Of a stretch of DNA of 64,000 bases, positions 17,443 through 41,049 are shown one piece after another. Origin of the DNA: an uncultured Actinomycetes bacterium (GTDB taxonomy: Bacteria; Actinomycetota; Coriobacteriia; Anaerosomatales; PHET01); the NCBI GenBank assembly GCA_963726325.1, contig CAVSCA010000007.1, positions 34,392 through 98,391 of the forward strand, written 5' to 3'. The position numbers and the translations under genes were made by a program. A model generated the notes under the pieces. It searched no databases and had not been told where the DNA came from. It saw only the letters and a list, made by a program, of their open reading frames with translations. Position 1 is the first letter of the stretch. Each line of letters opens with the position of its first letter.

Positions 17443-17835
17443 GTGGCCGGATCGTCTGACACCGAGACGCCCGTCAGGGCGAAGGCGTTGCTGGTCGACC
17501 CCGAGACGATGGCCGTCCGGTGGACGAACGAGCCCGTCGGCTCCTCGTTGTCCTGGCGACGCAGAGGGGCGCCGCAGCCCCTCGAACTCACGCAGGCCGT
17601 CCCGATGTCCGATGCCCTGGGGCTTCCGGATGTTGTCAGGGAGGTCTGGCAAAGCGGAATCGCCCGGCACCTTGGCGCGAATCTCGTCACGACGGGCAAG
17701 GGCGCGGTTGCCTACGTGGTGTCGGTCTATCGGCTGCCCGACGGAGCGGTACTCGTTCTCACCGAGCACGCCTGGCACGTCAAGGAGGGCGCGGAGTCGC
17801 CGAGCGGGACGCGCCGCTCGCAACGGCGCCGCTGA
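17443..17835 (+). CDS. hypothetical protein (possibly PAS-like)
   Basis: GTG 17443, 4 nt after the previous stop. Intact 130-aa ORF. No family recognised. Confidence 0.45.
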   Translation: MAGSSDTETPVRAKALLVDPETMAVRWTNEPVGSSLSWRRRGAPQPLELTQAVPMSDALGLPDVVREVWQSGIARHLGANLVTTGKGAVAYVVSVYRLPDGAVLVLTEHAWHVKEGAESPSGTRRSQRRR

Positions 17836-17842
17836 CTGCGGG

Positions 17843-18497
17843 TCACTCGAGTTCCGCGCCCGGTTCACGCTTGCAGCGGCAGGCCAGCGACTTGATGTCG
17901 CAGGGCATTCGGATCTGGGTCACGTTGATTCCCTCAGGTATCTGCAGCCTGAGAATCGGAGTCAGCATCAGTACGCCCTCGACTCCCGCCTCGGCGCAGA
18001 GGTCGAGTACGGCTTGGGCCCAATCAGGCGAACAGGCCACCAGCGCGACGCGCACATCGAGCTGCTCGTCGATTTCGGGAATGGCGCTCACGTGCTGGAC
18101 GGTGATTCCGTCGATGACCTCGCCCGCGTCCTCGGGATTCTGGGAGTAGAGCGCGACCGGGAGCAACGCCGTAGGCCTCCGGCGGGAACACCACATCGAG
18201 CGCTCGCAGCATCTCGGCGGAGCCCACACGCATCGTCGGATACTGCTCCTTGATGCCAAGGAACTCCTGGATCGCGGCGAACAGATCCGCCGCCTTGTAC
18301 CCGGCGCCGGGGCGCCCGATGGTGCCGATGAAGGAGATGTCGCGGCGGACCGTCTCCTCCTTCAGGTCCAACTCCTCGGCTATCGTCCTGGAAGTGATGG
18401 CTTCGTCCGGCCTGGCCCTGAGCAGCTCGCCCAAGTAGCAGTGGTAGAGCGACAAGCGATAGGCGGTCGCGTCGGGGACTGGTTGTGTGGCGGCCAC
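17843..18497 (-). CDS. rex: redox-sensing repressor Rex; frame change near 18160-18175
   Basis: PDATAYRLSLYHCYLGELL...ITSRTIAEELDLKEETVRRDISFIG (wHTH). A Rossmann-like part LLPVALYSQNPEDAGEVIDGITV...VALVACSPDWAQAVLDLCAEAGVEGVLMLTP continues in a second frame. Confidence 0.8.
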
Positions 18498-33875: not shown

Positions 33876-34371
33876 GTGTCTCTAAGAACAGAGGCATACT
33901 ACAGATCGGTCGCCACCGAGGCGCTCGGCAGCCTGCCGTGCGACGAGCCGCCGGTGCCCATCGACGCCCTTGTCTCGGCACTGGGAATCCCCGTGCGGGC
34001 GGTGAGTCTGCCCTGACTTCTTCACCTCGGCACTCGTCTACGAAGACGGGCTGCCGGTCATGGTGCTGAACTGGGCAAAGCCCGAGCCCGAGCGCCGTGT
34101 CGCGCTCGCGCACATGCTCGGCCACGTGCTGCTCGTGCTGCACGGGGACGACGAGACCTATCCGCGCGAGCAGGGCGACCACAAGGGCGCGGATCTGGTC
34201 GCGAACGAGTTGATGCTCCCCACGCAGATGGTCGCCGATCAGGCGAAGCTGTGGTTCAACGACTTCCGCTACCTTGCGCGGCTGTTCGGCGTCAGCGAGG
34301 AGCAGATGCTCGACCGTATGCGCCAGATGGGGCTGATCAGCGGTCCTCAGGGCGCGGTGTGGGACTACTAG
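33876..34371 (+). CDS. ImmA/IrrE-family metallopeptidase; extra base at about 34014
   Basis: GTG 33876. PVPIDALVSALGIPVRAVSLP stops at TGA 34014-34016. The +1 frame continues DFFTSALVYEDGLPVMVLN...RRVALAHMLGHVLL (HExxH-like variant). Confidence 0.7.
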
Positions 34372-35437: not shown

Positions 35438-35466
35438 CACAGCGCGTCTCCAACCAGGAGGTTCAC

Positions 35467-36094
35467 ATGAGCGACGACCGCATCGAGTCCCACGAAGAAC
35501 GCCTCCTCGTCTTGCGAGACAAGGCCGCTCGCGAGGGGTTCGTCGTCGGTGACGATGTGCTCGACTACATCGCCGGCAAGTACGCGTTGGCGACCACGCT
35601 CAAGGGTGCGCTGATCAACGTGCAGGCACTCGCTTCGCGCAAGGGCGTCCCCGTGTCGCTGTCGATCGCACGGCTCGCGCTGGATGGGATCCGCGAGACG
35701 CCCGCGCCCCCGCCATCCGAGCAGGCCGCAGCGGACGACGGATCGTGGGCCGAGGAGCCTCGGAGCCCGCCGATGAATGGGCGCCCGAGCCCGAGCCCGA
35801 GCTCGCGGAACCGGACGCCGACACGTGGGACGAGCCCGTGATCGAGCCCGGCGCGGGCGCGCCAACGGAGGCGACGCCTGCGCCCGAACCCGAACCGGTC
35901 GCCGGCGAAGCGGGTCCGGACCCAACCGTGACGGCGACGCTGTTCGTCCCGCCTCCTCCGCAGGCGCCTTCGGCGCCGGTCGCCACAGCGCCGGCGCCCG
36001 CTGCCGTCCACGAGCCGGCCGCGTCAGCGCCGCTGCCGTCCACGAGCCGGCGGCCGCGCACGAGACCGAGCCGGCCGTCGTCTGGTTCGCGCCC
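35467..36094 (+). CDS. DnaA AAA+-lid-like N-terminal module plus acidic Pro/Ala/Glu-rich linker; probably the N-terminal part of a fusion with the downstream DUF362 protein
   Basis: AGGAGG-N6-ATG at 35467. RLLVLRDKAAREGFVVGDDVLDYIAGKYALATTLKGALINVQALASRKGVPVSLSIARLALDGI aligns by eye with DnaA domain IIIb. The linker runs through frames 1, 0 and 2, and the peptide AAVHEPAA occurs on both sides of the last frame change. Confidence 0.5.
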
Positions 36095-37175
36095 ATGCGC
36101 AGCACCAAGAAGGAGTCGCTGGTCAAGCGAGTCGGCAACCTGCTCAAGGTCGCCGGCATCAAGCACGCCATCGGCGACGGCGACCTGGTCGCGATCAAGC
36201 TGCACTTCGGCGAGGAGGGCAACACCGGGTTCGTGCAGCCCATCTTCCTGCGTGAGGTCGTTCGGCAGGTGCGCAAGCGCGGCGGCAAGCCGTTCCTCAC
36301 CGACTGCAACACCCTCTATCGCGGCAAGCGCGGCAACGCCGTCGACCACCTGAACTGCGCGATCCACAACGGCTTCAGCCACGCCACCCTCAACGCGCCG
36401 ATCATCATCGCGGACGGGCTTGGACGGCCGCGACGGCGTCGACGTTCCGATCGCGGGGTTCAAGCACTTCGACAGCGTGCGGATCGGCGCGGCGGCGGTT
36501 CACGCCGACGCCATGGTCGTCGTCACGCACGTGAAGGGCCACGAGGCCACCGGCTTCGGCGGCGCGATCAAGAACGTGGGCATGGGGCTCGGGACGCGGG
36601 CCGCGAAGCAGCGGATGCACAGCGATCTCAAGCCGCAGGTCACTGCCGAGAAGTGCACCGCCTGCAAGCGCTGCGTGAAGTCGTGCCCGGTGCGCGCGAT
36701 CGAGATCGTCGACAAGGTCGCAGTCATCGACTACGAGAAGTGCTACGGCTGCGGAGAGTGCGTCGCGGCCTGCCCATACGGCGCCATCGGCATTCAGTGG
36801 AAGACCGAACCCCAGGCGATCCAGGAGAAGATGGTCGAGCACTGCGCCGGCGCGCTCGCCGACAAGGACGGCAAGGTCGTCTACCTGTCGTTCGTGACCA
36901 ACGTCTCGCCCGACTGCGATTGCTGGAGCTTCTCGGACGCGAGCGTCGTGGCCGACATAGGGGTGCTCGCGTCGACCGACTTGGTCGCCATCGACCAGGC
37001 TGCGTACGACCTGGTCACCCAGGCGCAGGGCCTTCCGGGCAGCCGCGGTGAGGGCTTGGCGGCCGGCGTCGACAAGTTCCGCGAGATCACCGGGATCGAC
37101 GGGACGGTCATGCTCGAGTACGCCGAGGCGCATGCGATGGGGACCAGGTCATACGAGCTCAAGATGCTCGACTAG
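36095..37175 (+). CDS. DUF362 protein with inserted 2x[4Fe-4S] ferredoxin domain; frame change near 36405-36425
   Basis: VVWFAPMRSTKKESLVKRV...VAIKLHFGEEGNTGFVQPIF...PFLTDCNTLY...THVKGHEATGFGGAIKNVGMGLG. Ferredoxin motifs CTACKRCVKSCP and CYGCGECVAACP. ATG 36095 lies inside the conserved first strand, and homology starts at about 36077 with no start codon there. Confidence 0.75.
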
Positions 37176-37193: not shown

Positions 37194-38266
37194 ATGGACT
37201 ACGGCGACATCATCAAGCGGTCGTGGCGCATCACCTGGCGCTACAAGGCGTTGTGGGTGCTCGGCATCTTCGCCGGGGTCTCGGGCTGCCAGGCGAGCGG
37301 CGGCTCGGGCGGCAACAGCGGCGGCTCGAGCGGCAACGGCCTCCAGCAGTTCGGAAACGAGTTCTCACGCTTCCGGTTCGAGCGCTTCATGGACCGGCTC
37401 GCCGAGCTCATCCCGCTGCTCGTCGCGATCGGCCTTGCGCTGATGCTGATCGGGCTCGTCATCGCCGTGCTGTCGATCGCAGCACGGGGCGGTCTGGTGC
37501 TGGGAACCAACGCTGCCGATGAAGGCCGCCGCGCCACGCTCACCGAACTGTGGGGCGCCGGATTCGGCCGCTTCTGGCCCCTGCTCGGCCTGGATCTGCT
37601 GCTGAAGCTGCCGATTCTCGCCGTTGTGCTGGTCATGATGGCCGGAGTCGGCGTCCCGATCTTCACGGCGTTGGCCGGGGGAGCGCAGCCCACAGCCGGC
37701 GATGATCGCGCCCGTGTGCGGCAGCCTGGGGCTCGGCGTGCCGCTGCTGTTCGTCATGAGCTTCGTCCTCGGCATCATGTACCTGATCGGCCTTGCGCTA
37801 CATGATGATCGGCGGTCAGGGCGTGCTCGAGTCGGCCGGCAACGGGTGGCGTTTCTTCCGCGCTCGTTTCAAGGACACGTTCCTGTTGTGGCTGATCAAC
37901 GCCGGGCTCAACATCGCCGCGTCCTTTGCGCTCGCGATCCCCATGGTCATCATCGGCATCGGCGTTGCGATCCCGATGGTGGCCGCGATCGTGGGCGGGA
38001 AGTGGGCCATCCTCGCCGGCGCGATCGCCTTCACGGTGTTCGCGATCTGGATCATCGCGATGGCCTACAACGCGATATGGGGGACGTTCACCTCGGCTTT
38101 GTGGACGGTGTTCTTCCGCGACGTCGCCGGTCTGAGCGCGGCGGCTCCCATGGGCGTCGCGGCGGAACCGGTCGTTGCGGCTGCCGGCTATCCCGACTCC
38201 GCTGCGCCGCCCATGGCCCCCCTCGACGCGCCACCGATGGCGCCGCAACCTCCGGCCGATGCCTGA
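37194..38266 (+). CDS. polytopic membrane protein, function unknown; two frame changes (about 37690 and about 37790)
   Basis: MDYGDIIKRSWRITWRYKALWVLGIFAG..., then MIAPVCGSLGLGVPLLFVMSFVLGIMYLIG, then MMIGGQGVLESAGNGWRFFRARFKDTFLLWLINAGLN... in frames 0, 1 and 2. Confidence 0.55.
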
Positions 38267-39122
38267 GGCGGGACGTCTCATTGTCTGCGCTACGCCCATC
38301 GGCAACCTGGCCGATGTGACACTGCGCGTGCTCGATGCGCTGCGCGACGCCGACACGGTGCTCGCCGAGGACACCCGGGTCACGCGCAAGCTGTTCGGTC
38401 GGTACGCGATCGCATCGCCCCTCGAGCGCTACGACGAGCACACCGCGTCGAAGCGGACCCCCGAGATCGTCGGGCGCATCGAGGCCGGCGAGCGTATCGC
38501 GCTCGTGTCCGACGCTGGCACCCCGGGCATCAGCGATCCCGGCGCGCGCCTTGTCGACGCGGCGCTGGACGCGGGCCTGCCGGTCGAGGTGTTGCCGGGC
38601 GCCTCGGCGATCCTGGCCGCGCTGGTCGCCAGCGGGTTGCCCACGCACGCCTTCTACTTCGGCGGCTTCGTGCCCCGCAAGAAGGGCGAGCGTGCGCGGC
38701 TGCTCGAATCGCTCGGTGCGCTCGACGCGACACTCGTCTTCTACGAGTCGCCCAAGAGAACCGCGGCAACGCTTCGAGCGCTCTCTGAGGCGTTCCCGGG
38801 GCGCACCGGGGCGATGGCGCGCGAGCTGACGAAGTTGCACGAGGAGGTCGTGCGCGGCCCTTTGAGCGAGATCGCCGAGCAGATCGCACAACGCGAGGAC
38901 CTCAAGGGGGAGGTCGTCGTGCTCGTGGGCCCGCCGGCCGGCAGAAAGACGGCCGCGACCTACCCCGAGGCCGTTGACGAAGAGCGCGTCCGCGCGATGG
39001 TCGCGCGGCTCATCTCGGAGGGCACGACGCGCACGGCGGCGGTCAAGCAGGTAGCGCGTGAACTGGGTGTCGAGCGCAACACGGTCTACGACCTGACGAT
39101 GGGCAGGAAGGGCGACGCCTAG
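38259..39122 (+). CDS. rsmI: 16S rRNA (cytidine1402-2'-O)-methyltransferase
   Basis: ATG 38259. LIVCATPIGNLADVTLRVLDAL...VLAEDTR...VSDAGTPGISDPG...LPGASA...FYESPKR. Confidence 0.9.
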   Translation: MPEAGRLIVCATPIGNLADVTLRVLDALRDADTVLAEDTRVTRKLFGRYAIASPLERYDEHTASKRTPEIVGRIEAGERIALVSDAGTPGISDPGARLVDAALDAGLPVEVLPGASAILAALVASGLPTHAFYFGGFVPRKKGERARLLESLGALDATLVFYESPKRTAATLRALSEAFPGRTGAMARELTKLHEEVVRGPLSEIAEQIAQREDLKGEVVVLVGPPAGRKTAATYPEAVDEERVRAMVARLISEGTTRTAAVKQVARELGVERNTVYDLTMGRKGDA

Positions 39123-39364
39123 CTCTTCTTGACCGTCTCGATGCAGCTGGAGCAGACGGGGCGGCCCTTCACCTCGGTCATCTCGTCGAGGGTCTCGCCG
39201 CACAGTGCGCACGCGTCTTTGTGCTTCTGCAAGATGATGCGGTCGCCTTCAACGAAGATCGCCATCGGGTCTTTGACGCTGATGCCCAGCGTCCGACGCA
39301 ACTCCATTGGAATCACGATACGGCCCAGATCGTCGACTCGCCGGACGATGCCCGTGTCGTGCAT
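39119..39364 (-). CDS. abrB: AbrB/SpoVT-family transition-state-type regulator with C-terminal Cys4 ribbon
   Basis: GGAGAGG then ATG 39364. MHDTGIVRRVDDLGRIVIPMELRRTLGISVKDPMAIFVEGDRIILQK, then CALCG...CSSC. It sits in the same position as B. subtilis abrB (between rsmI/yabC and metG). Confidence 0.8.
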   Translation of the reverse strand: MHDTGIVRRVDDLGRIVIPMELRRTLGISVKDPMAIFVEGDRIILQKHKDACALCGETLDEMTEVKGRPVCSSCIETVKKS

Positions 39365-39489
39365 GACGACCACCTCTCCGATGTCTGCGCGTGTGGGGCG
39401 GGCGCAAACGGTTAGAATCACTCGGTAGGCTTTCGGCTTTGTCAGCTCACCTTCCAGTATTACCCACGACCTCGGAGTCCCGAAACACG

Positions 39490-41049
39490 ATGTGCGCCCA
39501 GTCTTTCTACCTCACCACGCCTATCTACTACGTGAACTCGGTGCCCCACCTCGGCACCGCCTACACGACCGTCGCCGCCGACGCGCTCGCGCGCTACCGC
39601 CGCATGCTCGGCGATGACGTGCACTTCCTCACCGGGCTCGACGAGCACGGGCAGAAGGTCGAGCAGGCGGCCACCGAGAACGGCATGACGCCGCAGGCGT
39701 GGGTCGACTCCATCGCGCCCAAGTTCCAGGCTTCGTGGGAGATGCTCGGCATAACCAACGACGACTTCATCCGGACGACGCAGGAGCGCCACGAGCGCGG
39801 AGTGCAGCGTCTCGCGCAGGTGCTCTACGACCGCGGTGACATCTACAAGGGGCACTACGAGGGCTGGTACTGCGTTCCGGACGAGACCTACTGGGCCGAG
39901 GGCGACCTGGGCGAGGGAAGCACCTGCCCGCAGTGCGGCCGGCCCGTCGAGTTCGTCCGTGAGGACAACTACTTCTTCAAGCTCTCGGCCTACGCCGAGG
40001 AACTGCTCGCGCTCTACGAGGCCAATCCCGACTTCATCCGCCCCGAGACCCGGCGCAACGAGGTCGTGAGCTTCGTCAAGGGCGGCCTTCGCGACCTGTC
40101 GATCTCGCGTGCGAACGTGAAGTGGGGGGTCCCGCTCCCGTGGGATCGGACGCACACGATGTACGTGTGGTTCGACGCGCTGATCAACTACATCACGGCG
40201 GTGGGCTACGGCGATCCCGACAAGGCCGCCGAGTTCGAGCGCCGCTGGCCCGCGCAGATCCACTTCGTGGGCAAGGACATCATCCGGTTCCACTGCGTGA
40301 TCTGGCCGGCGATGCTCATGGCCGCAGGCATCCCGGTGCCCAAGAGCGTCTTCGCGCACGGCTTCCTGCTCACCAAGGGCGAGAAGATGAGCAAGTCGAA
40401 GGGCAACGCGGTGTCGCCCGCCCAGCTCGTGGAGCGCTTCGGCGTCGACGGCTACCGCTACTACTTCTTGCGCGACGTGCAGTTCGGTACCGACGGCTCC
40501 GTCTCGATGGAGGCGATGGTCCAGCGCTACAACGGTGACTTGGCCAACGACTGGGGCAACCTGTGCTCTCGGCTGTTCAACATGGTCGGCAAGTACTTCG
40601 ACGGCGCGGTGCCCGATCCGGCCGGATCGCCGACGCTCACCGAGGACGACGCCGACCTGCGCGATATCGCGCTGCGTCTGCCCGAGCGCTACGACTCGGC
40701 GATGGCCTCGCTGGACTACGCCGGTGCGCTGGAGGCCACCTGGGACCTGGTGAAGCGGGCCAACCGCTACATCGAGGACTCTGCGCCGTGGAACCTCGCG
40801 AAGTCCGAGGAGACGATGGGCCGGCTTGGCGCCGTGCTCTACAACGCGCTCGAAGCGGTCCGCATCGCCGCGCTGTTCTGCGCGCCGGTCATGCCCGCCA
40901 CCTCGGCCGAGGTCTGGCGGCGGCTGGAGCTCGCCGACATCACTGCCGTCACCGACCTTGCGGCCGAGGTGCAGTGGGGCCGGCTGCCCGTCGGCAACGC
41001 CGTCGTGAAGGGCGACCCGCTCTTCCCGCGCATCGTCGAGGACGCCTAG
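39490..41049 (+). CDS. metG: methionine--tRNA ligase (short form, no C-terminal tRNA-binding domain)
   Basis: Intact 519 aa. FYLTTPIYYVNSVPHLGTAYTT, zinc knuckle CPQCG and KMSKSKGN. Confidence 0.92.
   Translation: MCAQSFYLTTPIYYVNSVPHLGTAYTTVAADALARYRRMLGDDVHFLTGLDEHGQKVEQAATENGMTPQAWVDSIAPKFQASWEMLGITNDDFIRTTQERHERGVQRLAQVLYDRGDIYKGHYEGWYCVPDETYWAEGDLGEGSTCPQCGRPVEFVREDNYFFKLSAYAEELLALYEANPDFIRPETRRNEVVSFVKGGLRDLSISRANVKWGVPLPWDRTHTMYVWFDALINYITAVGYGDPDKAAEFERRWPAQIHFVGKDIIRFHCVIWPAMLMAAGIPVPKSVFAHGFLLTKGEKMSKSKGNAVSPAQLVERFGVDGYRYYFLRDVQFGTDGSVSMEAMVQRYNGDLANDWGNLCSRLFNMVGKYFDGAVPDPAGSPTLTEDDADLRDIALRLPERYDSAMASLDYAGALEATWDLVKRANRYIEDSAPWNLAKSEETMGRLGAVLYNALEAVRIAALFCAPVMPATSAEVWRRLELADITAVTDLAAEVQWGRLPVGNAVVKGDPLFPRIVEDA

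Follow-up and report, generated by a model that had tools for sequence, protein, structure and literature searches.

We have analysed by computational means a gene at positions 35467-37175 (plus strand) of a 64,000-nucleotide (nt) stretch of DNA, called here the window, from an uncultured Actinomycetes bacterium (GenBank assembly GCA_963726325.1, contig CAVSCA010000007.1, positions 34,392 to 98,391). After repair of three 1-nt insertions or deletions (indels), this interval is a single gene that encodes a three-part protein of 569 amino acids (aa). The protein begins with a domain homologous to the lid of DnaA, continues with a long, acidic and disordered linker, and ends in a DUF362 domain that carries an inserted ferredoxin (Table 1). 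An earlier sequence-only reading of the same DNA had proposed such a fusion, and we report here which parts of that proposal stand, how the fusion is distributed, and what the lid and linker might do.

Layout of the gene

In a three-frame translation of the window, the gene is read in the frame order 1, 3, 2, 3 (frame 1 starts at 35467 and gives way to frame 3 at about 35755, to frame 2 at about 36030 and, after 36415, to frame 3 again until the stop codon). An intact homologue, P0003, matched the window by tblastn in exactly four collinear pieces that follow this same order of frames, and there are thus exactly three frame changes. These four pieces, together with the existence of full-length intact homologues, bear out the proposal that one polypeptide spans 35467-37175 once three single bases are repaired. 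The sequence-only reading had also described a ribosome-binding site of the form AGGAGG-N6-ATG. Both the AGGAGG and the ATG at 35467 are present, with a spacer of 5 nt and not 6. The first strand of the DUF362 domain (VVWFAPMRS) begins at 36077, where it had been placed, and its frame holds no ATG, GTG or TTG upstream of it other than an off-frame-looking open reading frame (ORF) start at 35777.

When the repaired 569-aa protein was used as a query, dozens of full-length proteins of 500-658 aa were recovered, with about 100% coverage and 53-92% identity, and all the full-length homologues begin with the lid domain and end with DUF362. The fusion that was to be sought in related genomes is therefore found in dozens of full-length homologues, and in these neither a stop codon nor an independent start lies between the lid and DUF362. 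The lid-linker-DUF362 layout is shared in total by more than 60 intact homologues, 500-850 aa long. For comparisons at the DNA level we used a three-way alignment of the window with two related contigs, L001 (96% identical) and L002 (92% identical, and intact), both from one metagenome.

Table 1. Features of the lid-linker-DUF362 gene, in positions of the window
Feature	Position	Strand	Basis or remark
Shine-Dalgarno sequence AGGAGG	35456..35461	+	direct sequence reading; identical base for base in L001
N-terminal domain, aa 1-78, four-helix bundle, homologue of DnaA domain IIIb (AAA+ lid), without sensor-2 Arg	35467..35700	+	profile, AlphaFold2, Foldseek, TIGR00362
Acidic disordered linker rich in Pro, Ala and Glu (after repair about 127 aa), with frame changes 1 and 2	35701..36076	+	composition; pLDDT <50 in the P0003 model
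Frame change 1 (frame 1 to 3), one base missing near 35755-35762 (about 35757)	35752..35762	+	three-way alignment; edges of the tblastn matches at 35754 and 35760
Short linear motif T-L-F, context VTATLFVPPPP	35937..35945	+	conserved within an otherwise unalignable linker
Tandem duplication in the linker, 20-nt cores 36000-36019 and 36032-36051, peptide AAVHEPAA twice	36000..36051	+	with frame change 2
Frame change 2, one G missing (CCG^GCT)	36032/36033	+	three-way alignment; inside the linker tandem duplication
DUF362 domain, first part (VVWFAPMRS ... NAPIIIADG), frame 2	36077..36415	+	PF04015 E=3.5e-50; dN/dS against L002 0.06
Frame change 3, one extra G in a GGG run	36416..36418	+	three-way alignment; extra base also in L001
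DUF362 domain, remainder, with ferredoxin insert and PDCDCW motif (36909-36926), frame 3	36419..37172	+	dN/dS against L002 0.028
Inserted 2×[4Fe-4S] ferredoxin domain, CxxCxxCxxxCP at 36654-36689 and 36741-36776	36624..36809	+	Fer4 E=1e-14, Fer4_10 E=1e-13
Stop codon TAG	37173..37175	+	sequence reading
P0003 aa 1-96	35467-35754	+	tblastn, frame 1
P0003 aa 95-199	35760-36050	+	tblastn, frame 3
P0003 aa 173-302	36032-36421	+	tblastn, frame 2
P0003 aa 301-552	36417-37172	+	tblastn, frame 3

The N-terminal domain is homologous to the DnaA lid

In residues 1-78 we recognise a genuine homologue, at the level of the domain, of the lid (domain IIIb) of DnaA; the protein as a whole is not a DnaA. In single-sequence scans, the N-terminal domain gave a weak match to Pfam Hda_lid (E=0.11) and a match to the DnaA model TIGR00362 (E=1e-4), which covers only positions 271-338 of 437 and scores 22 bits against a cut-off of 344. 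A phmmer search of 1.8 billion representative proteins with an 87-aa domain returned the fusion family first (down to 44% identity, with lengths up to 845 aa) and next reached Pfam-confirmed DnaA proteins, with whole-library E-values of about 1e-4 to 1e-5; in these the matched segment always lies just after PF00308, and before PF08299 where PF08299 is present. A profile built from 25 family members matched residues 277-351 of Bacillus subtilis DnaA (8btg) with E=7.6e-14 and the crystal structure of domain III (8bv3) with E=3.3e-13. TIGR00362 matched all 25 members, at the same model positions (best E 5.9e-9), the Hda model matched 13 of the 25, and Hda_lid matched 24 of them at E≤1 (best E 1.2e-5); the window domain reached 13.5 bits (E=0.07) with Hda_lid (PF22688), below its gathering threshold of 27 bits. 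At the sequence level, matches of the domain were restricted to DnaA and Hda.

The structural comparison gives the same picture. An AlphaFold2 (AF2) model of the lid, made from the family alignment, is a four-helix bundle (helices at residues 9-23, 29-38, 42-59 and 65-73) with a predicted local distance difference test score (pLDDT) of 92. Its best Foldseek match in the PDB is 8bv3_A, with a root-mean-square deviation of 0.9 Å over 67 columns and a query-normalised template modelling (TM) score of 0.76; the lids of RuvB and RuvBL come next. The alignment by eye of some 80 residues to the DnaA lid in the sequence-only reading thus lies far beyond chance by profile, phmmer and TIGR00362, the B. 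subtilis segment that it quoted agrees with residues 277-351 of 8btg, and the profile and Foldseek searches that it proposed do find the lid of DnaA.

Much of the DnaA pattern is kept in the domain (R12, L16, K19, E23-G24, P28, Y34-I35-A36, L45 and G47-A48-L49), including the box VIII residues L-x-G-A-L, which are kept in the lid family. By profile alignment, the position of the sensor-2 arginine, already seen to be altered, is occupied by Thr43 in the window and by Gln in most of the family, beside a one-residue deletion. Also as previously described, the rest of DnaA is missing: neither the 98-aa nor the repaired full-length protein matched PF00308 (the Bac_DnaA ATPase core with Walker A and B) at E≤1, the protein gave no match to PF08299 (domain IV, the DnaA-box-binding helix-turn-helix, HTH), and the disordered linker follows directly after the lid. 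A lid without ATPase core, DNA-binding domain and sensor-2 arginine implies that DnaA-like binding or hydrolysis of ATP does not take place, and that the domain acts through its surface only.

The linker and its conserved motif

The linker, described as about 125 aa rich in Pro, Ala and Glu, measures 127 aa by our count; Pro and Ala each account for 31 of them, Glu for 20 and Asp for 7, Lys and Arg are lacking, and the net charge is -27. AF2 modelling of full-length P0003 gives a pLDDT of 82 overall and values below 50 at residues 84-169. Across homologues the linker varies in length from 59 to 404 aa, and its sequence is unalignable except for one motif. In the window it contains a 20-nt repeat, GCTGCCGTCCACGAGCCGGC, at 36000 and 36032, with a period of 32 nt, one short of the in-frame 33. 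The duplication of the peptide AAVHEPAA had been noticed before, and it is real, at these positions instead of about 36001 and 36035. It is missing from L002, and L001 has it at in-frame length, different from the window. The variation of this 33-nt-type duplication (AAVHEPAAS-AP) between the window, L001 and L002 indicates a rapid turnover of indels in the linker.

Examples of linker peptides with the motif that can be aligned are PTVTATLFVPPPP and, from P0041, SQPTLDLSSGF. The form [ST]LF occurs in 44 of 60 linkers, whereas 2000 shuffles that preserve composition gave 0.97±0.96 and never more than 5; the linker sequences are mutually related, however, and these counts are not independent events. 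Thr or Ser precedes 51 of the 67 L-F sites. Of 18 genome loci compared at the level of species, 16 have [ST]LF and two have Q-S-M-L-D-L or Q-P-T-L-D-L instead. A motif of this second kind, Q-x-x-[LF]-D-L, is present in 4 of the 16 linkers that lack [ST]LF and in none of the 44 that have it, and a count of 4 was never reached in 5000 shuffles; the remaining 12 linkers have Leu- or Phe-centred hydrophobic variants, such as x-L-[FWY]. Even with this reservation, [ST]LF, replaced by Q-x-x-L-D-L in a few members, is the sole conserved element of a fast-evolving linker.

Both forms resemble classical motifs for binding of the β-clamp. One of these classical motifs has the form QLxLxL, an example being the N-terminal motif QLSLPL of Hda. 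The general bacterial consensus is QL(S/D)LF (PMC9690074), and in the actinobacterial NucS protein the clamp motif that is experimentally required reads [EK]-[LY]-[TR]-L-F, that is, a T-L-F without the glutamine (PMC6159515).

The DUF362 and ferredoxin part

The C-terminal part is predicted to be an iron–sulfur (Fe-S) enzyme, made of a DUF362 domain with a LarA-like fold, an inserted ferredoxin and an invariant Cys/His site. PF04015 matched over its full length (profile positions 1-200 of 200), with 171.3 bits against a cut-off of 24, and the two ferredoxin motifs, CTACKRCVKSCP and CYGCGECVAACP, lie in a region that Fer4 and Fer4_10 recognise above their thresholds. All eight ferredoxin cysteines are invariant in 57 sequences, and so are HFGE, LTDxNTLY, H278/C281, HxKGH, KQRMH and PDCDCW (C467, D468, C469 and W470). 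The residues of the LarA-like site would be, in the numbering of P0003, H230/E233, C281, H338/H342 and C467/C469.

Searches of the PDB by sequence matched the ferredoxin insert to the polyferredoxin MvhB and to RnfB and found no structure of a DUF362 protein. The solved folds closest to the DUF362 body by Foldseek are those of the LarA lactate racemases 5huq and 6c1w (E=5e-7, TM-score of about 0.4, 15% identity), and Pfam Lar_N matched with E=0.008, below its cut-off. LarA as the nearest fold agrees with the Pfam clan that DUF362 and LarA share, in which DUF362 has been taken as the outgroup to LarA (PMC11770544).

Distribution, gene order and evolution

A scan of one genome per species gave 17 loci with the lid domain, all of them in Actinomycetota or Coriobacteriia metagenome-assembled genomes (MAGs) from soil, groundwater or termite gut. 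At 15 of these 17 species-representative loci, an uninterrupted ORF of 499-665 aa runs through the lid, HFGE and the two Cys motifs, and a closed 2.5-Mb chromosome (OW818687.1) has an intact copy of 574 aa. On this comparison, the lid-linker-DUF362 combination is conserved in a clade of uncultured Coriobacteriia-like Actinomycetota. The gene order is also kept in the family (HD_5 – HEAT – M78 – ROK – the gene – DUF7544 – RsmI – AbrB-like on the minus strand – MetG – TatD), and rsmI remains a neighbour even in the termite-gut members, the most distant ones. No dnaA gene lies within the window.

In sister lineages, the DUF362 protein also exists without the extension. An unfused orthologue of 374 aa, P0116, stands in identical synteny, with a start codon that overlaps the stop codon of the ROK gene, and many unfused orthologues of 371 aa start 3-15 aa before VVWFAP. 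On a rough neighbour-joining tree of DUF362 domains, without support values, fused and unfused forms interleave. Because of this interleaving and of the unfused orthologue in identical synteny, the lid and linker would be an accessory addition to a resident enzyme. Given a lid of single origin, the tree suggests repeated loss of the N-terminal module.

Members of the family carry the public names 'DUF362 domain-containing protein', '4Fe-4S ferredoxin' or 'uncharacterized Fe-S center protein'. The family is abundant in soil, groundwater and termite-gut Actinomycetota and annotated only by its C-terminal part, and mis-called starts hide the lid in some records. At the locus of HGW-Actinobacteria-7 (L008 6001-7752, PHET01000003.1), the ORF is open through lid and linker, yet the product P0042 has been called from an internal Met, and P0022 has been called likewise.

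Other features were seen around the gene. The order rsmI – abrB-like (opposite strand) – metG – tatD – FMN reductase – DUF348/G5/3D – ksgA is found in the window (38175-41049 and beyond) and in L002 (12741-21659). The rsmI-abrB-metG-tatD genes just downstream of our gene correspond to the neighbourhood that holds yabA in B. subtilis, and the order from rsmI to ksgA mirrors yabC-abrB-metS-yabD-yabE-(rnmV)-ksgA there, with yabA a few genes upstream. In L002 (13601-16643), and also in the related loci L003 and L004, a block of three minus-strand genes (BcrAD_BadFG activator, HGD-D and DUF2229) stands between rsmI and the abrB-like gene; this block is 2-hydroxyacyl-CoA-dehydratase-like, and neither the window nor most of the other loci have it. 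Elsewhere in the window, at 17788-17872, ARAGORN called an 85-nt tRNA-Ala(CGC) for which the Rfam tRNA model gives no match at its gathering threshold; the call may be false or the tRNA unusual.

The frame changes and other readings of the locus

At the first frame change, the length excess over the intact L002 is 17 nt in the window and 19 nt in L001, where 18 nt would be in frame. At 36416, the alignment reads GACGGGCTTGGAC in the window, GACGGGTCTGGAC in L001 and GAC-GGTCTCGAT in L002, and dropping one G at 36416-36418 restores D-G-L-D-G in the window and L001 alike. The codons that flank this extra G differ synonymously between the two (GGC TTG vs GGT CTG). Across segments, dN/dS in the repaired frames is 0.00-0.07 (window versus L002 or L001). 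The lid gives 0.00, with 13 synonymous and no nonsynonymous differences from L002, and the DUF362 segments, whether or not a shift precedes them, give 0.02-0.07 each. Contig names and MFD isolate labels mark the related contigs as Flye-style long-read MAGs, and L001 has about a dozen private indels, among them different frameshifts within the lid-DUF362 gene itself. Because dN/dS stays low in every repaired segment, the three frame changes are almost certainly consensus errors of a long-read assembly and not decay. What looks like a pseudogene is then an assembly artefact, for which three exact repairs can be given.

Private indels of the same size are seen in the surroundings. A 1-nt insertion at 34014 (CCCTGAC in the window, CCC-GAC in L001 and L002) creates a TGA in a Peptidase_M78 (ImmA/IrrE-like) gene, which is split in the window into ORFs 33876-34016 and 34060-34371 and is intact, with 164 aa, in both related contigs. 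Downstream, window-private 1-nt insertions at 37696 and 37789 split a DUF7544 membrane-protein gene into ORFs 37194-37805 and 37793-38266; in L001 and L002 this is one gene of 350-356 aa. The three insertions together imply an indel error rate of roughly 7 per 10 kb across the assembly. In L001, private indels fall inside the ferredoxin insert, at positions equivalent to 36694 and 36738 of the window.

Other explanations of the locus have been weighed against a single gene with a DnaA-derived lid. Three frame changes within 1.7 kb would be expected of a genuine pseudogene inactivated by three real frameshifts, and the extra G at 36416, being common to the window and L001, counts against an explanation by assembly errors, as a real and very recent shared frameshift is conceivable there. 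Decay is nevertheless very improbable in our opinion: the repaired frames are free of stop codons and under constraint downstream of each shift, synonymous differences have accumulated around the shared G while both copies give the same peptide once repaired, genes nearby, in a housekeeping context, have similar private indels, and all three indels of the gene sit in G/C runs or in the repeat-rich linker of 78% GC. We likewise give very little credit to a model of two separate genes, in which a small lid protein would be followed by a DUF362 protein started at the internal Met of FAPMRS, as in some annotations. Products of 359 aa starting at MRS have indeed been called (P0022, and P0042 from HGW-Actinobacteria-7), as has a 103-aa 'stand-alone' lid protein, P0001, on L001. 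However, P0001 and its 116-aa neighbour (L001 6001-6604) are frameshift artefacts of the long-read contig, the ORF of the HGW-Actinobacteria-7 locus is open for 583 aa from lid through DUF362, and the two domains share a frame without a stop codon in more than 60 sequences, however long the linker. Moreover, true unfused orthologues start upstream of VVWFAP and not at the internal Met, and no Shine-Dalgarno sequence precedes the internal ATG in the window. The 359-aa gene calls look like mis-called starts that hide the fusion. As to the origin of the N-terminal domain, a generic AAA+ lid or a chance helical bundle could be argued from the modest Foldseek E-values (2e-3), the RuvB and RuvBL lids close behind that of DnaA, and the Hda_lid score under its gathering threshold. 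Such an origin is hardly believable in view of sequence matches to DnaA and Hda alone, found by the family profile, by phmmer and by TIGR00362 in every member, and of the conserved box VIII residues.

Possible roles of the lid and linker

We propose that the lid and linker could form an accessory, bivalent docking module, in which a long and flexible leash bears both a folded head and a linear motif. Such a module would hold the Fe-S enzyme near a partner, or would make the partner sensitive to the state of the enzyme. In this general form, as a tether that docks the enzyme to some partner, the proposal is probably correct. The most specific candidates for partners are a DnaA-type AAA+ core, which the lid would bind, and the cleft of the β-clamp, which would be the site for the [ST]LF or QxxLxL motif, on the model of Hda and YabA. 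By analogy with these proteins the assignment may be entertained, though we hold it to be tentative and on balance unlikely. A redox-linked interaction with DnaA had been offered in the sequence-only reading as pure speculation, and the conserved clamp-binding-like motif lends it somewhat more support than it had then. A still narrower version, which we regard as distinctly unlikely, makes the protein a clamp-tethered decoy of the DnaA lid, that is, an initiation regulator like Hda or YabA coupled to a 2×[4Fe-4S] enzyme of LarA fold; redox or Fe-S status would then feed into DnaA activity, or the enzyme would be brought to the replisome. We know of no Hda or YabA equivalent in Actinomycetota.

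Several observations weigh against DnaA and the clamp as partners. The DnaA-invariant RELEG has become xTLKG, in which the Glu is replaced by an invariant Lys46, and with this lysine and the lost sensor-2 arginine the surface of the lid may perhaps no longer fit a DnaA core. As to the motif, the main clade lacks the canonical Gln, and two positions ahead of the Leu it has G, D, A, E or P instead of a hydrophobic residue. AF2 docked neither lid nor motif onto anything in the full-length monomer of P0003. The apparent repeated loss of the module argues against an essential role in replication, and no replication genes occur in the genomic context of the gene at the family loci compared.

The main alternative is that the lid fold has been reused for self-association or autoregulation, for example by docking on the DUF362/ferredoxin body or on its own acidic linker, with no role in replication and with the LF motif as an intramolecular or enzyme-partner contact. 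The loss of the sensor-2 arginine, the family-specific invariant surface (R12, K19, R22 and K46), a charge-neutral lid beside so acidic a linker, the dispensability of the module in many lineages and the genomic context would all suit it. Against it, AF2 gave no confident docking of motif or linker, and motif variants that match both classical clamp-binding forms would have to be a coincidence. We consider autoregulation possible but doubtful.

Should DnaA and the β-clamp prove to be partners of the lid and the [ST]LF motif, the protein would be the first candidate for a clamp-coupled control of initiation in this phylum, and one tied to redox chemistry. Otherwise, the family would still show cleanly how part of an essential ATPase can be turned into a docking head at the end of a disordered leash; to our knowledge, orphan AAA+ lid domains have rarely been reported as stand-alone modules. 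In addition, the fusion offers a handle for finding the partners of uncharacterised DUF362 enzymes.

Comparison with known systems

In the literature we came across no DnaA-derived lid other than those of DnaA and Hda and, in agreement with what had been stated before, no publication on such a lid joined to a DUF362 enzyme. With domain IIIb of B. subtilis DnaA (8bv3/8btg), the N-terminal domain shares the four-helix fold, 33-44% identity and the pattern ETR...ILR.KA...EG...P..V..YIA...L.GAL..V, including most of box VIII. It differs from DnaA in being an orphan, without domain I, the Walker A/B ATPase core or the domain IV HTH, in its Thr or Gln and one-residue deletion at sensor 2, in the charge reversal at Lys46, and in its place at the N-terminus of an unrelated enzyme.

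The likeness to Hda, the E. coli factor for DnaA's regulatory inactivation (RIDA), and to YabA of B. subtilis is confined to their logic, in which a module related to DnaA, or able to bind it, is paired with a short β-clamp-binding motif in a flexible region. In Hda the AAA+ core is complete and includes an Arg finger, whereas YabA is a coiled-coil and zinc protein without homology to DnaA, and neither of them is fused to an enzyme. The motif of NucS/EndoMS, from the same phylum, has the same T-L-F core without the canonical Gln. In NucS, however, it sits at the very C-terminus, with a hydrophobic residue in position 2, while here it is internal, with G, D, A, E or P at that position.

Among solved structures LarA comes nearest to the DUF362 body, as a distant neighbour that lacks the ferredoxin insert. 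Much closer are the proteins of PF04015 and COG2768 ('uncharacterized Fe-S center protein', in clan CL0471 with LarA), of which the C-terminal 366 aa are typical, with the usual 2×[4Fe-4S] insert, and the unfused 371-aa DUF362 orthologues, which are 72-77% identical to this part. What sets our protein apart from them is the N-terminal extension of 200 aa, formed by the lid and linker, which scores below the Pfam gathering threshold and is ignored by public annotation. The lid-linker-DUF362 protein is thus neither a DnaA nor an Hda, but a regular DUF362/ferredoxin protein with an N-terminal extension that has gone unrecognised.

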